A DNA stretch of 64,000 bases from the NCBI RefSeq assembly GCF_030013205.1, contig NZ_CP122648.1, one strand, 5' to 3'. Shown here one piece after another: positions 337 to 62,558 of the stretch (position 1 is its first letter; every line of letters begins with the position of its first letter). Origin of the DNA: Escherichia coli (GTDB lineage Bacteria > Pseudomonadota > Gammaproteobacteria > Enterobacterales > Enterobacteriaceae). Below the pieces are notes generated by a model that saw nothing but the letters and a program-made list of their open reading frames with translations, was not told the DNA's origin and searched no databases. Made by a program: the position numbers and the translations under genes.

Positions 337-760
<424 letters not shown>

Positions 761-8721: not shown

Positions 8722-8790
8722 GAGAGAAAACCCCCGCACGTTGCAGGTATGCACCTGACAACATCACGGGGGCTAATCTTGAACCTAGAC
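8722..8790 (-). ncRNA. rdl: Rdl-type antisense sRNA (antitoxin of ldr), copy 1, approximate ends
   Basis: Antisense of the ldr leader; sequence GTCTAGGTTCAAGATTAGCCCCCG...GCGGGGGTTTTCTC recalled as Rdl-like. Confidence 0.4.
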
Positions 8791-9205: not shown

Positions 9206-9273
9206 AGAGAAAACCCCCGCACGTTGCAGGTATGCACCTGACAACACCACGGGGGCCATTCTTGCATCCAAAC
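9206..9273 (-). ncRNA. rdl: Rdl-type antisense sRNA, copy 2, approximate ends
   Basis: Paralogous position in repeat unit 2; the 5' portion diverges from copy 1. Confidence 0.35.
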
Positions 9274-9687: not shown

Positions 9688-9756
9688 GAGAGAAAACCCC
9701 CGCACGTTGCAGGTATGCACCTGACAACACCACGGGGGCCATTCTTGCATCTAGAC
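9688..9756 (-). ncRNA. rdl: Rdl-type antisense sRNA, copy 3, approximate ends
   Basis: Paralogous position in repeat unit 3. Confidence 0.35.
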
Positions 9757-34567: not shown

Positions 34568-34583
34568 AGTTTTACTCTGACAT

Positions 34584-34689
34584 AAAAAAAACCCGGCATA
34601 GGGGACCGGGAAGAGGATAGTCTGCCGTCTCCAGACTAATAAACCGTTATAACACTCCCTGTTGGCACGGGAAACTTTGTGCTCTCAGT
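34584..34689 (-). ncRNA. gadY: GadY small RNA, antisense to the gadX 3' end
   Basis: Minus-strand sequence ACTGAGAGCACAAAGTTTCCCGTGCCAACAGGGAG...CCCGGTCCCCTATGCCGGGTTTTTTTT matches my recollection of GadY and ends in a hairpin plus U-run. Confidence 0.75.
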
Positions 34690-34935
34690 AAGTTAAATAT
34701 AACTTTTACTGGAAATAAGATCAGCCATTTTTTTATAAACATAAGCTATACGCTGTGCGAAAATATATTCGTGTTGCATTTACTTATTATCAATTAACTG
34801 TTATGCAAAACTACTTTGTGGATAAATTTTGGTCCTACCAAATCTGGCAGTTTTTGCGCTAAGAAACAGTCTGGCATCATTTCATTAGTATACTGAAATT
34901 GAAATAATCGCAGTAATGAAATATAAGGGATAGTC

Positions 34936-40322: not shown

Positions 40323-40660
40323 TTTAGTCCCTGAAAATTCTTGAGAAATAACGGTTCTTTAAATTGCGCGCGAGGAGAGATATGAGGGATTTACAGACCA
40401 GCGGCATAGTGGGGTTGTCAGCCAGTAAGGTGGGATACAGGCATAGTGATCGACATGGTGAGGTCAACGACAAAAAAAATGTTGCCGTTCTGCCAACAGT
40501 TCCTGCCAGCATTCGGGCAACGAAGGGTTCTACTGGTGGATACACATACCAGGGGAATAAAGTCGTTTTAACCTCTCCTTTAGTAATCACCGGGGGTAAT
40601 GAAATCAGCATCTGCATCCCTCGTCATGCCAGCCATCAATTTCAGTTGCTTATGTCCTGA

Positions 40661-49954: not shown

Positions 49955-50244
49955 CACGTTTGCGCTTAACAAAACACGACCATATGGATAACAAAACCAT
50001 AGCATTTGCAAGGGATAACGCACAGCGCTCTTCACTCCTGATGGGGCATATCGTTTTGCCTGACAAAGAGGGCGTGCTTTTGCGTATTTGCCGAGATACC
50101 AGGCAATTTCATGGGATATAAACGCCTGTAAACTCACCCGGCGAATATTATCGCTCTGAATTTTAAATAAATTTATTTTTCGCCAGCCACCCCGGTATTA
50201 ACCCAGGCAGCCAGCATTTTTTATTTTCCTCATGGAGAATCGCT

Positions 50245-52227
50245 ATGTCACGTCCGCAATTTACCTCGTTGCGTTTGAGTTTGTTGGCTTTGGCTGTTTC
50301 TGCCACCTTGCCAACGTTTGCTTTTGCTACTGAAACCATGACCGTTACGGCAACGGGGAATGCCCGTAGTTCCTTCGAAGCGCCTATGATGGTCAGCGTC
50401 ATCGACACTTCCGCTCCTGAAAATCAAACGGCTACTTCAGCCACCGATCTGCTGCGTCATGTTCCTGGAATTACTCTTGATGGTACCGGACGAACCAACG
50501 GTCAGGATGTAAATATGCGTGGCTATGATCATCGCGGCGTGCTGGTTCTTGTCGATGGTGTTCGCCAGGGAACGGATACCGGACACCTGAATGGTACTTT
50601 TCTTGATCCGGCGCTGATCAAGCGTGTTGAGATTGTTCGCGGACCTTCAGCATTACTGTATGGCAGTGGCGCGCTGGGTGGAGTGATCTCCTACGATACG
50701 GTCGATGCAAAAGATTTATTGCAGGAAGGACAAAGTAGTGGTTTTCGTGTCTTTGGTACTGGCGGCACGGGGGACCATAGCCTGGGATTAGGCGCGAGCG
50801 CGTTTGGGCGAACTGAAAATCTGGATGGTATTGTGGCCTGGTCCAGTCGCGATCGGGGTGATTTACGCCAGAGCAATGGTGAAACCGCGCCGAATGACGA
50901 GTCCATTAATAACATGCTGGCGAAAGGGACCTGGCAAATTGATTCAGCCCAGTCTCTGAGCGGTTTAGTGCGTTACTACAACAACGACGCGCGTGAACCA
51001 AAAAATCCGCAGACCGTTGAAGCTTCTGATAGCAGCAACCCGATGGTTGATCGTTCTACAATTCAACGCGATGCGCAGCTTTCTTATAAACTCGCCCCGC
51101 AGGGCAACGACTGGTTAAATGCAGATGCAAAAATTTACTGGTCGGAAGTCCGTATTAATGCGCAAAACACGGGGAGTTCCGGCGAGTATCGTGAACAGAT
51201 AACAAAAGGAGCAAGGCTGGAGAACCGTTCCACTCTATTTGCCGACAGTTTCGCTTCTCACTTACTGACATATGGCGGTGAGTATTATCGTCAGGAACAA
51301 CATCCGGGCGGCGCGACGACGGGCTTCCCGCAAGCAAAAATCGATTTTAGCTCTGGCTGGCTACAGGATGAGATCACCTTACGCGATCTGCCGATTACCC
51401 TGCTTGGCGGAACCCGCTATGACAGTTATCGCGGTAGCAGCGACGGCTACAAAGATGTTGATGCTGACAAATGGTCATCTCGTGCGGGGATGACTATCAA
51501 CCCGACCAACTGGCTGATGTTATTTGGCTCATATGCCCAGGCATTCCGCGCCCCGACGATGGGCGAAATGTATAACGATTCTAAGCACTTCTCGATTGGT
51601 CGCTTCTATACCAACTATTGGGTGCCAAACCCGAACTTACGTCCGGAAACTAACGAAACTCAGGAGTACGGTTTTGGGCTGCGTTTTGATGACCTGATGT
51701 TGTCCAATGATGCCCTGGAATTTAAAGCCAGCTACTTTGATACCAAAGCGAAGGATTACATCTCCACGACCGTCGATTTCGCGGCGGCGACGACTATGTC
51801 GTATAACGTCCCGAACGCCAAAATCTGGGGCTGGGATGTGATGACGAAATATACCACTGATCTGTTTAGCCTTGATGTGGCCTATAACCGAACCCGCGGC
51901 AAAGACACCGATACCGGCGAATATATCTCCAGTATTAACCCGGATACCGTTACCAGTACCCTGAATATTCCGATCGCTCATAGTGGCTTCTCTGTTGGTT
52001 GGGTCGGTACGTTTGCCGATCGCTCAACACATATCAGCAGCAGCTACAGCAAACAACCTGGCTATGGCGTGAATGATTTCTACGTCAGTTATCAAGGACA
52101 ACAGGCGCTCAAAGGCATGACCACTACTTTGGTGTTGGGTAACGCTTTCGACAAAGAGTACTGGTCGCCACAAGGCATCCCACAGGATGGTCGTAATGGA
52201 AAAATTTTCGTGAGTTATCAATGGTAA
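50245..52227 (+). CDS. chuA: TonB-dependent outer-membrane haem/haemoglobin receptor
   Basis: 660 aa; signal peptide; TonB-dependent receptor architecture; C-terminal aromatic residue (...SYQW). Confidence 0.9.
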   Translation: MSRPQFTSLRLSLLALAVSATLPTFAFATETMTVTATGNARSSFEAPMMVSVIDTSAPENQTATSATDLLRHVPGITLDGTGRTNGQDVNMRGYDHRGVLVLVDGVRQGTDTGHLNGTFLDPALIKRVEIVRGPSALLYGSGALGGVISYDTVDAKDLLQEGQSSGFRVFGTGGTGDHSLGLGASAFGRTENLDGIVAWSSRDRGDLRQSNGETAPNDESINNMLAKGTWQIDSAQSLSGLVRYYNNDAREPKNPQTVEASDSSNPMVDRSTIQRDAQLSYKLAPQGNDWLNADAKIYWSEVRINAQNTGSSGEYREQITKGARLENRSTLFADSFASHLLTYGGEYYRQEQHPGGATTGFPQAKIDFSSGWLQDEITLRDLPITLLGGTRYDSYRGSSDGYKDVDADKWSSRAGMTINPTNWLMLFGSYAQAFRAPTMGEMYNDSKHFSIGRFYTNYWVPNPNLRPETNETQEYGFGLRFDDLMLSNDALEFKASYFDTKAKDYISTTVDFAAATTMSYNVPNAKIWGWDVMTKYTTDLFSLDVAYNRTRGKDTDTGEYISSINPDTVTSTLNIPIAHSGFSVGWVGTFADRSTHISSSYSKQPGYGVNDFYVSYQGQQALKGMTTTLVLGNAFDKEYWSPQGIPQDGRNGKIFVSYQW

Positions 52228-58068: not shown

Positions 58069-58190
58069 TGCGCTACGCGCTACAGATTTCATGCCATGCA
58101 CGGTTTTGTAGGTCGGATAAGACGCGTTAGCGTCGCATCCGACATAAACAAAGCGCACTTTACCAACTATGGGCAGTGGATATCGCCGCT

Positions 58191-59972: not shown

Positions 59973-60326
59973 TTAACTACAAGTGTTCTTACAGTCTACG
60001 GAACAATTTTGTCTGGCCAGGTTGCGGACAATCACCTGAACCTTTTCCTGTTCGCATCGCCAGGCCTGCTCAATAATTTTCGCGGCCCATGATGGAATAT
60101 GCGGTGATAAGCGGTAATGAACCCACTTACCCTGCTTGCGATCCAGCAACAAACCGCTTTCACGAAGAAGCGCCAGATGGCGGGAGATCTTGGGCTGCGA
60201 CTGGTCGAGAGCAGTGCAGAGATCACAGACGCATAACTCTCCCAGCTCGCTGAGCAGTAAAACGATGCCCAGACGGGTTTCATCAGCAAGAATTTTGAAC
60301 AGTTGGATGGGTAACAGAAATGACAT
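59973..60326 (-). CDS. arsR: arsenic-responsive repressor
   Basis: 117 aa; metal-binding site ELCVCDLC and HTH. Confidence 0.92.
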   Translation of the reverse strand: MSFLLPIQLFKILADETRLGIVLLLSELGELCVCDLCTALDQSQPKISRHLALLRESGLLLDRKQGKWVHYRLSPHIPSWAAKIIEQAWRCEQEKVQVIVRNLARQNCSVDCKNTCS

Positions 60327-60478
60327 ATTGCGCTCCTGATTGTTGCAGGTAGTGTCTCTCTTCGAAGCGGATAAGTCAAAAACATATATGGTTTAACGAA
60401 TGTGTATGTGCAGAGGAAGGTAATAGGTGTGAATTTTGAGTTGGCTATTTATTTGAAAGGAGGTCTGAATCAGGACGT

Positions 60479-60562
60479 AAAAAAACCGACTTTGCGTCGG
60501 TTTTTTACTTTCCAGCCCTGAGTTGGTGGCTCTGGCCGGAGTGAGAATGCCCACATCTAACG
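60479..60562 (-). ncRNA. agrB: AgrB-like antisense sRNA (approximate ends)
   Basis: Minus-strand unit ending in hairpin CCGAC...GTCGG plus U-run (plus-strand 60479-60506); complementary to the dinQ leader repeat at about 60940-61000. Confidence 0.45.
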
Positions 60563-60710
60563 GTTCAATACTATTAGCCAGTGGCTAACATTGCAAGCGT
60601 TAGCGATTTCTTCAGCTGGCGAAGGGACAGTTTGCTATACATGTTGGTGAAAGAGGATTTATATACTTTCATCGGGTCGCTGCCGTACCAGGCCTTGTCC
60701 GAATCCGGAC

Positions 60711-60795
60711 GTAAAAAAACCGACTTCGCGTCGGTTTTTTACTTTGCAGCCCAGAGTTGGTGGCTCTGGCTGGAGTGAGAATGCCATCATCTAAC
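60711..60795 (-). ncRNA. agrA: AgrA-like antisense sRNA (approximate ends)
   Basis: Second copy of the same repeat/terminator unit (hairpin at 60718-60738). Confidence 0.45.
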
Positions 60796-60859
60796 GCATC
60801 AATGCTAATACCATACTGAAACTATTGCAAGGACATGCTGGTTTTATAACCTGTATGTA

Positions 60860-60875
60860 CTGTATGATTATCCAG
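60860..60875 (+). promoter_or_regulatory. LexA (SOS) box upstream of dinQ
   Basis: CTGTATGATTATCCAG fits CTGT-N8-ACAG. Confidence 0.7.
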
Positions 60876-61068
60876 TTAGTTCTGAGGCATTTTCACTCTG
60901 GTAATGCGCATAAACGCTTTCAAAGTCCTGGTCAGAAGTACGGGTGGTGCCGTTAACTGATGCTCTGGCCGGAGTGAGAATGCCCACATCTAACAATGGG
61001 GCATGCGCCGTGACAGGCAGTGGATGAGTAAGCGGATGCATTCTCACTCCATCGCATGGAGAAAACGG

Positions 61069-61152
61069 GTGATTGATAAAGCAATCATCGTTCTTGGGGC
61101 GTTAATTGCGCTACTGGAACTGATCCGCTTCCTGCTTCAGCTTCTGAACTGA
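61069..61152 (+). CDS. dinQ: DinQ type I toxin peptide, 27 aa (GTG start; VIDKAIIVLGALIALLELIRFLLQLLN)
   Basis: Small hydrophobic ORF translated by hand; matches the DinQ peptide as I recall it; downstream of the LexA box. Confidence 0.7.
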   Translation: MIDKAIIVLGALIALLELIRFLLQLLN

Positions 61153-61168
61153 TAGCGGAAACGTAGCT

Positions 61169-61200
61169 AAGGGCTAAGAGCACACTACTCTTAGCCCTTT
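61169..61200. terminator. bidirectional 12-bp hairpin between convergent dinQ and gor
   Basis: AAGGGCTAAGAG / loop CACACTA / CTCTTAGCCCTT. Confidence 0.55.
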
Positions 61201-61205
61201 AACAT

Positions 61206-62558
61206 TTAACGCATGGTCACGAACTCTTCTGCCGCCGTCGGGTGAATGGCGACGGTATTGTCGAAGTCTTTTTTGGTTGCGCCCATCTTCAGCGCCACCG
61301 CGAAGCCCTGCAACATTTCATCCATACCAAAACCAATGCCGTGAATTCCGACAATCTTCTCTTCCGGTCCAACGCATACCAGTTTCATGCGGCACGGCTG
61401 GCGGTGAGTGGTGACTGCGGTATACATCGCGGTGAAAGAGGATTTATACACTTTCACCTGATCGTCGCCGTACTGCTCGCGCGCCTGCGGTTCCGTTAAA
61501 CCAACAGTCCCAATCGGCGGATGGCTGAAGACCACGGTCGGAATGTTGCTGTAATCCAGATGCTCATCCGGCTTGTTATTAAACAGGCGTTCAGAGAGAC
61601 GGCGACCCGCTGCAACTGCTACCGGTGTCAGTTCCACTGCCCCCGTGTTATCGCCCACCGCGTAAATACCTTCAACGTTGGTATTTTGATATTTATCGAC
61701 GACGATATAGCCTTTTTCGTTAGTTTTAACGCCAGCGGCTTCCAGGTTGATGTTGTTATTGGCAGGCTCGCGACCAATCGCCCAAATCAGGCAATCTACC
61801 GTTTCACTGCGACCATCTTCCAGCTCCAGCGTCAGGCTGCCGTCGGCATTTTTCACCACCGCTTTCGGGATGGCGTTGGTGTGCAGCTGCGGGCCTTCGG
61901 CGTTCATCACTTCGACCAGCGTTTCAGAGATCATCGGGTCGAAGCTGCGCAGCGGCGCATGTTTACGCACAAACAGATGCGTTTTCGCGCCGAGGCCGTT
62001 AATCACGCCCGCCAGCTCAACGGCGATGTAACCCGCGCCAACAACCGCCACGCGCTCTGGCAAAGCAGGAAGGGCGAAGAAGCCATCAGAATCAATACCG
62101 TATTCCACGCCCGGAATATCCGGGTGGCTCGGACGACCGCCGGTGGCGATCAGAATATGATCGGCCGTGATGGTTTCGCCGTTTACCTCCAGCGTTTTGG
62201 CATCAACGAAGCGGGCAAAGCCTTTGATTACATCAACGTTATTTTTACCGAGCACGTTTTCATAGGAAGTATGAATACGGTCGATATAGGCGGTACGCCT
62301 GGCGATCAACGTTTCCCAGTTGAATTTATTTATAGTGGTATCGAAACCATAATCCGGACCGTACATGTGGATCGCTTCACGGATTTGCGCCGCGTGCCAC
62401 ATCACTTTCTTCGGTACGCAGCCGACGTTCACGCAGGTGCCGCCCAGCTCTTTGGCTTCAATCAGCGCGCATTTCTGGCCGTACATAGCCGCGCGGTTGA
62501 TGGAGGCGATACCGCCGCTGCCGCCGCCGATGGCGATGTAATCATAGTGTTTAGTCAT
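61206..62558 (-). CDS. gor: glutathione-disulfide reductase
   Basis: 450 aa; FAD-binding GGGSGG near the N-terminus and redox-active CVNVGC. Confidence 0.95.

Follow-up and report, generated by a model that had tools for sequence, protein, structure and literature searches.

Positions 60327 to 61205 of the 64,000-nt stretch of Escherichia coli DNA analyzed here (contig NZ_CP122648.1 of RefSeq assembly GCF_030013205.1; the window) correspond to the arsR–gor intergenic region of E. coli. This region carries the dinQ toxin gene on the plus strand and two small RNA (sRNA) genes, agrA and agrB, on the minus strand. It is flanked by arsR on the agrB side (59973-60326, minus strand) and by gor on the dinQ side (61206-62558, minus strand). 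An earlier interpretation made from the letters of the window, referred to as the sequence-only reading, had identified a complete dinQ–agrAB type I toxin-antitoxin module at this site and proposed an alignment with E. coli K-12 as a check. The 879-nt intergenic region was found to align end to end and collinearly with that of K-12 MG1655, with 96% identity and with the same order and orientation of the genes. The interpretation thus withstood the refutation proposed for it, a lack of identity to dinQ/agrAB. In the K-12 record, gor is followed by dinQ (b4613), agrA (b4712), agrB (b4713), and arsR. The Rfam and NCBIfam models for the components were also passed. A 1-kb query matched several RefSeq E. 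coli chromosomes with 100% identity, among them those of sequence type 2747 (ST2747) and porcine enterotoxigenic E. coli (ETEC)/O139:H1 strains, and the annotation beneath the match comprises arsR, "damage-inducible type I toxin DinQ," and gorA, in the same order as in the window. In one of these identical genomes, the dinQ coding sequence (CDS) maps precisely onto positions 61069-61152. Every part of the module listed in the sequence-only reading was recovered at, or a few bases from, the position assigned to it, and all of the sequence-level features that define dinQ–agrAB of K-12 are found in the window locus. We are therefore confident that the region is an intact chromosomal dinQ–agrAB type I toxin-antitoxin locus, most likely working as in K-12. 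This finding is already known, since the same gene set occupies the same chromosomal site in K-12: the system has been characterized genetically and biochemically since 2013, and it has an Rfam family, an NCBIfam model, and a RefSeq annotation. The interest of the identification lies in the correct recognition of a small, easily overlooked module from raw sequence, and it adds little as a discovery.

The two sRNA genes were named by synteny with K-12, the arsR-proximal copy being agrB (b4713) and the dinQ-proximal paralog being agrA (b4712). Both are full-length matches to the Rfam family AgrB (RF02891; gathering score, 40), with scores of 106.2 bits for agrB (60477-60560, minus strand; model positions 1 to 84) and 98.3 bits for agrA (60711-60794, minus strand). 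They had been described beforehand as two minus-strand repeats, each ending in an A-tract, a hairpin, and a U-tract, a description borne out by the Rfam matches and by folding, which revealed an A6-CCGAC...GUCGG-U7 terminator hairpin at the end of each sRNA (positions ~60480-60506 for agrB). The copies lie within a 114-nt direct repeat (60463-60576 and 60697-60810) with 89% identity and a spacing of 234 nt. A candidate classification of the copies as repetitive extragenic palindromic (REP)-type repeats was rejected, as they are full-length AgrB matches. A putative sigma-70 promoter precedes each gene on the minus strand. For agrB (60568-60596), it consists of a TTGCAA -35 hexamer (60591-60596), a 17-nt spacer, and a TAGTAT -10 hexamer (60568-60573), with a transcription start site (TSS) at 60560 placed from the K-12 annotation and position 1 of the Rfam model. 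For agrA (60802-60830), the hexamers are TTGCAA (60825-60830) and TAGCAT (60802-60807), again separated by 17 nt, with a TSS at 60794. The agrA promoter stretch is identical to that of K-12, and the agr promoters have been reported to be constitutive (PMC3567139). The spacer between agrB and agrA contains a 53-nt relic of the interior of gor (60636-60688; 83% identity by blastn to gor positions 61421-61473, in the same orientation; E = 2e-11), and the translation of an open reading frame (ORF) at 60574-60672 on the minus strand contains a stretch resembling the gor protein. The relic probably stems from the duplication that gave rise to the second agr copy and built the 234-nt agr repeat unit. 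It is also the stretch most divergent from K-12, and the spacer that holds it is 4 nt longer in the window.

Between agrA and the dinQ ORF lies the dinQ promoter with its LexA operator. The 20-mer TACTGTATGATTATCCAGTT at 60858-60877 (plus strand) is identical to the K-12 operator, for which a heterology index of 4.83 and regulation by LexA and UV have been published (PMC3567139). The operator overlaps the dinQ -10 hexamer TATGAT (60863-60868), which is the one experimentally characterized in K-12, as well as the inferred +1 position (60875). The LexA box had been correctly located at 60860-60875 in the sequence-only reading, but its core was given there as CTGT-N8-ACAG; the sequence is CTGTATGATTATCCAG, i.e., CTGT-N8-CCAG, one base off the core claimed. 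The same 20-mer is present in Escherichia albertii and Escherichia whittamii and carries a single substitution in Escherichia sp. E1V33. Four bases 5' of the operator, position 60854 is a T in the window and a C in K-12 (CTGC to CTGT). A second, weak LexA operator (heterology index, 13.82) has been described "in close proximity" in K-12 (PMC3567139).

The dinQ ORF (61069-61152, plus strand) comprises 27 codons, begins with GTG, and encodes the single-transmembrane toxin MIDKAIIVLGALIALLELIRFLLQLLN. Both the coordinates and the translation (V/M-IDKAIIVLGALIALLELIRFLLQLLN, 27 residues) coincide with those of the hydrophobic, GTG-initiated peptide predicted earlier. The peptide has the same sequence as K-12 DinQ, the four nucleotide differences within the ORF being synonymous. 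It scored 54 bits with the NCBIfam equivalog model NF041472 (toxin_DinQ; cutoff, 30) and 14.9 bits with the DqlB model NF041473, under its cutoff of 35, and assignment to a dql paralog was rejected on this score. Pfam contained no family match for DinQ, for the 49-residue ATG-initiated ORF (61003-61152) of which dinQ forms the C-terminal portion, or for a 59-residue ORF on the opposite strand. A Shine-Dalgarno (SD) sequence, GGAG, is located at 61058-61061, 7 nt 5' of the GTG codon. Downstream, a 12-bp terminator hairpin (61169-61200, plus strand; arms AAGGGCUAAGAG and CUCUUAGCCCUU) was present in all minimum free energy (MFE) folds; it stands back to back with the stop codon of gor, the end of which is at 61206, and its position agrees with the description in PMC3567139. 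The antisense ORF just mentioned (57 to 59 residues; 60868-61047, minus strand) is annotated as a hypothetical protein (WP_001316702.1 and relatives) in some RefSeq genomes and is unannotated in others. It is probably a spurious gene call, since it lacks a Pfam match and shares positions with the LexA box, the dinQ leader, and the AgrB target.

Two features of the region could be taken to mean that it consists of generic intergenic repeats, of the REP-like or neutral tandem duplication type, accompanied by a short ORF arisen by chance: the 234-nt tandem duplication unit with its gor pseudo-fragment and the presence of numerous short ORFs of similar size. We regard this explanation as having almost no chance of being correct. 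The curated Rfam and NCBIfam models were passed by wide margins, the peptide does not vary among Escherichia species whereas the DNA around it does, and the system has been characterized experimentally in K-12 (PMC3567139 and PMC5066626). The models, the K-12 alignment, and the cross-species invariance of the peptide effectively refute it.

The start of the dinQ transcript was set at 60875 by mapping the published numbering of the regulatory elements (PMC5066626) onto the window, whereupon all elements fell on the expected sequences. The primary (+1) transcript accordingly spans 60875-61200 (plus strand; ~326 nt), and the processed +44 5' end corresponds to 60918. A switch composed of four elements, an AgrB target at G88-A119, and activation by formation of the +44 RNA have been published for K-12 (PMC5066626). 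In the window, element 1 (U16-C28; 60890-60902; UUUUCACUCUGGU) provides the 5' strand of the S1 lock, or 1:2 duplex, and element 2 (G94-G106; 60968-60980) lies within the AgrB target. Element 3 (U167-U178; 61041-61052) is an arm of the predicted hairpin that sequesters the SD sequence, and element 4 (A182-G187; 61056-61061) contains the SD sequence and is predicted to pair with element 3, thereby hiding it. An inverted repeat is also apparent in the DNA, positions 61038-61051 being complementary to the repeat core GGAGTGAGAATGC. In the MFE fold of the +1 RNA, nucleotides 17 to 28 are paired with 94 to 105 (1:2) and nucleotides 173 to 178 with 182 to 187 (3:4). Both of these published helices were thus recovered, for the K-12 allele as well as for that of the window. 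When 12 distinct leaders from Escherichia and Serratia were folded to a consensus, the 1:2 duplex was retained, with a compensatory pair at alignment columns 14:110. What the present analysis shows is the anatomy of the locus, its sequence identity and complementarities, and, as predictions, the 1:2 and 3:4 helices.

For the dynamic part of the regulation, we infer LexA control, +44 processing, RNase III cleavage, and toxicity from K-12 experiments, which established the processing and cleavage steps and the toxicity of DinQ, comprising membrane depolarization and loss of ATP (PMC3567139 and PMC5066626). By analogy with K-12, the dinQ promoter would be repressed by LexA bound at 60858-60877 and derepressed upon DNA damage. 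The primary +1 mRNA would be translationally inert owing to the S1 lock formed by elements 1 and 2 and to the 3:4 hairpin masking the SD sequence. Loss of the first 43 nucleotides would, as in K-12, generate the +44 RNA and make element 2 available for pairing with element 3; the resulting 2:3 duplex would in turn expose the SD sequence, enabling translation of the 27-residue membrane peptide DinQ from the GTG at 61069 and, if the peptide acts as its K-12 counterpart, depolarization of the inner membrane. AgrB, presumably made constitutively, would pair by its 5' 32 nt with leader positions +88 to +119. On the K-12 model, this binding would recapture element 2, close the SD hairpin again, and open the duplex to RNase III.

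No result contradicts the identification of the locus, and the weak points of this account are four. First, the loose LexA core motif had 10 sites in the window versus 5.1 expected, which is not significant alone. Second, a search of the window for the 20-nt palindromic LexA consensus with up to 3 mismatches returned no match, because the operator departs from the consensus at 5 of its 20 positions. The LexA box is nonetheless credible because the operator 20-mer is that of K-12; the motif statistics alone give no support. Third, a generic promoter and terminator scan with a threshold of 9/12 called none of the elements of the locus. The agr promoters score 8/12, and the A- and U-tracts were absorbed into the terminator stems. 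Fourth, plain MFE folding of the +44 RNA did not recover the published 2:3 duplex for either the window or the K-12 allele, so that this step rests on published SHAPE (selective 2'-hydroxyl acylation analyzed by primer extension) and mutational data. The missing duplex is treated here as a limit of plain MFE prediction and not as counter to the model. All that the promoter and terminator scan returned was a hairpin within gor and one weak promoter-like site in antisense orientation, and it was therefore uninformative.

The AgrB target is part of a 33-nt repeat present in three copies, at 60529-60561 in agrB, 60763-60795 in agrA, and 60962-60994 in the dinQ leader. The third copy had been proposed to extend over 60940-61000; it is present in the leader, but the complementary core is limited to 32 to 33 nt and the repeat to 60962-60994. 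The leader copy is 100% identical to the agrB copy and 91% identical to the agrA copy. The target for AgrB and AgrA on the plus strand (60962-60994, +88 to +119 being 60962-60993) holds element 2 and an 8-nt block, and the 5' 32 nt of AgrB are a perfect complement of the leader. Sequence differences from K-12 are concentrated in this pairing segment and are concerted. The 8-nt block at 60980-60987 is polymorphic, reading ATGCCCAC in the window and GAGTTCTT in K-12, and the change occurs together in agrB and in the dinQ leader. Two additional leader changes relative to K-12, from AATGAGAC to AATGGGGC (60995-61005), lengthen a local hairpin at +106 to +130. Elements 1 and 2 differ from those of K-12 at one base each, whereas elements 3 and 4, the SD sequence, the start codon, the -10 hexamer, the LexA 20-mer, and the peptide are identical. 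The pattern of change in the 8-nt block suggests that the repeat copies evolve in concert or undergo gene conversion.

Duplex energies were computed on restricted segments, full-length duplexes having come out unrealistically long and interrupted. AgrB of the window pairs with its own dinQ target at 33 of 33 positions, versus 32 of 33 in K-12. The window duplex has 33 contiguous base pairs and a predicted energy of -72.2 kcal/mol, compared to -62.8 kcal/mol for the K-12 pair. Duplexes formed across alleles between window and K-12 partners were predicted at -56.1 and -42.5 kcal/mol, the cognate pairs being 16 to 20 kcal/mol more stable. The S1 lock was predicted at -37.4 kcal/mol in the window versus -30.4 kcal/mol in K-12, and the isolated 2:3 duplex at -26.5 versus -20.3 kcal/mol. 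Because the predicted S1, 2:3, and AgrB duplexes are each 6 to 10 kcal/mol stronger than in K-12, the modeled switch appears to keep its logic with tighter helices in the window haplotype.

The second sRNA raises the question of which copy acts as the antitoxin. In K-12, AgrB is the sole effective antitoxin, and AgrA is considered a nonbinding paralog. AgrA of the window matches the dinQ target at 30 of 33 positions, with a predicted energy of -57.0 kcal/mol, compared to 26 of 33 positions and -46.4 kcal/mol for the K-12 pair. The former value is near that of the K-12 AgrB:dinQ duplex (-62.8 kcal/mol). The locus would be the same but its antitoxin assignment altered if AgrB and AgrA both acted in the window haplotype, providing redundant control. 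This possibility draws further support from other E. coli loci described below, in which the copy at the agrA position matches dinQ best or is alone in matching it well (L006/L007, L009, and L010), and from Escherichia species with a single copy, which is of the agrA type. However, two of the three AgrA mismatches, an adjacent pair, fall inside the 8-nt block and may be specificity deciding, duplex free energies leave out kinetics and seed accessibility, and a perfectly matched AgrB is expected to dominate. On balance, we consider redundant control less likely than not. In the database T1TAdb, the AgrA paralog is mentioned, and the more stable of the two predicted sRNA partners was chosen.

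The variation of the locus within E. coli was surveyed by comparing 13 loci drawn as an evenly spaced sample of the identity ranking; loci are designated by L numbers. Haplotypes were counted as records at least 99% identical over the whole locus, and these counts are approximate because identities were computed over aligned pieces only. The window-like haplotype is rare (27 of ~5,425 matching records), whereas 1577 records are K-12-like, 1250 L006-like, and 141 L009-like. At least four types of dinQ block occur among the sampled loci, and every type is accompanied by corresponding changes in the hairpin arm and in one of the agr copies. The copy with the better predicted fit varies. It is the agrB-position copy in the K-12-type loci L005, L008, and L011 (-63.0 versus -43.6 to -46.4 kcal/mol) and the agrA-position copy in L006, L007, L009, and L010 (-57 to -62 versus -46 to -49 kcal/mol; -57.3 versus -46.1 kcal/mol for L006). 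The agrA-position copy is also better, by a smaller margin, in L004 from O157:H7 (-55.1 versus -49.6 kcal/mol), and both copies are about equal in L003 (-62.2 versus -61.8 kcal/mol). The agr repeat unit, 231 to 234 nt in length, is present in one to three copies, L011 having three. A single agr copy was found in L012, L013, L016 (E. albertii), and L037. The lone copies carry the agrA-type promoter flank, which suggests that the agrA-type copy is ancestral. Queries with the K-12-like (L008), L006, and L009 loci each gave 45 to 126 plasmid matches, presumably dinQ-like (dql) genes.

Since the agrA-position copy is the best match to its own dinQ in several loci, the rule established in K-12, with AgrB as the antitoxin and AgrA inactive, may be strain specific. 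We tentatively propose, at somewhat less than an even chance of being right, that the 8-nt block is a naturally evolving specificity determinant that has been shuffled among the agrB, agrA, and dinQ-leader copies by gene conversion and that many lineages, possibly including that of the window, have in AgrA an alternative antitoxin. Lineages would then use different cognate copies, the agrB-position copy in K-12-type strains and the agrA-position copy in L006-type strains, and the window haplotype would combine a perfect AgrB with a near-cognate AgrA. If this is true, AgrA is an alternative or reserve antitoxin rather than a dead paralog, and the AgrB-only rule of K-12 holds for certain strains. 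The limited literature that was searched contained no account of a cognate copy that switches within the species, nor of the promoterless fusion haplotype described below, which is not proof of novelty. For research on type I toxin-antitoxin systems, the value of these observations is modest: they comprise concerted variation of sRNA, target, and hairpin, a best-matching sRNA that depends on the haplotype, and an annotated "dinQ" devoid of promoters, and they bear on the generalization of K-12 results and on the annotation of such loci.

The promoterless form was observed in L014 and L015 (e.g., E. coli U15A), in which, at about positions 441-600 of these loci, the body and terminator of an agr gene are fused at the 33-nt repeat to the downstream part of the dinQ leader. 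The fusion deletes the agr promoter, the dinQ promoter together with the LexA box, and positions +1 to +87, and leaves an intact CDS that is still annotated as "dinQ" in RefSeq. It accounts for 796 records at the 99% identity level, or ~15% of complete E. coli genomes, in agreement with the 837 genomes whose coverage of the window query is below 80%. Judging from this structure, about 15% of sequenced E. coli strains appear to have lost both promoters by recombination between the repeats. In L003, L013, L014, and L015, arsC instead of arsR adjoins the agr side, arsR-arsB being apparently missing or rearranged.

Because such a large fraction of complete genomes carries a promoter-removing deletion, loss of the system is tolerated in nature. 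This fact, the persistence of an annotated dinQ ORF in these genomes, and the unusual variability of the region raise the possibility that the locus of the window strain is itself a decaying, nonfunctional remnant devoid of regulated toxin expression. In the window, however, the sRNA genes, promoters, terminators, LexA operator, -10 hexamer, elements 1 to 4, SD sequence, GTG codon, and ORF are all intact, on which ground a decayed locus was rejected. Moreover, the substitutions relative to K-12 are either compensatory, affecting the sRNA, its target, and the hairpin arm, or synonymous, which argues for selection rather than decay. We consider a remnant very unlikely and retain the interpretation of an intact locus.

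Outside E. coli, a scan of species-representative genomes returned 33 matches, about two-thirds of which were chance matches in unrelated phyla, and only those in Enterobacteriaceae were used. The locus and the invariant DinQ peptide were found in E. albertii, E. whittamii, and Escherichia sp. E1V33. The scan also detected dinQ-like leaders in Serratia, Pantoea, and another Enterobacteriaceae genome, as well as an agr-like sRNA gene with a LexA-like box in Citrobacter amalonaticus.

Among known systems, the closest is dinQ–agrAB of K-12 itself (Weel-Sneve et al. 2013; Kristiansen et al. 2016), with which the window locus shares the position between arsR and gor, the gene order, the orientation, and the sRNA architecture. 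The dqlA/dqlB genes of Enterobacteriaceae chromosomes and plasmids have a related 5' untranslated region (UTR) with the four switch elements and encode a related hydrophobic peptide (PMC5066626). Because the window peptide fits the DinQ equivalog model (54 bits) rather than DqlB and the gene sits at the canonical arsR–gor site, the window locus is dinQ proper and not dql. The tisB–istR-1 system resembles dinQ–agrAB in several respects, including repression of the toxin gene by LexA, a primary mRNA that is inert until its 5' end is processed (+42 for tisB and +44 for dinQ), a divergently encoded trans-acting sRNA that binds a 5' UTR site distant from the SD sequence, cleavage by RNase III, and a small membrane-depolarizing peptide (PMC5066626). 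The two systems are, however, unrelated in sequence. The tisB mRNA relies on a ribosome standby site, whereas that of dinQ has mutually exclusive helices that open and close the SD sequence, and tisB lacks a second sRNA paralog.

The window contains other RNA elements at a distance from the locus. Three tandem matches to Rfam rdlD, spaced by ~483 nt, were found on the minus strand (8725-8790, 9208-9273, and 9691-9756; 82 to 90 bits) and presumably represent a triplicated ldr/rdl type I toxin-antitoxin array. Curated RNA matches also identified a tRNA followed by two RtT repeats (337-749, plus strand) and the sRNAs GadY (34579-34692, minus strand) and ES205 (40472-40543, minus strand). A REP-like palindrome at 58111-58149, downstream of the ars operon, gave scores of 29.7 and 24.4 bits with naRNA4 on the two strands, below the gathering score of 59.5. 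Finally, a shuA/chuA 5' UTR thermoregulator (50216-50247, plus strand) is present just 5' of a 660-residue ORF (50245-52227). To our knowledge, K-12 lacks chuA, and the presence of this chuA-type element therefore suggests a non-K-12 E. coli background.

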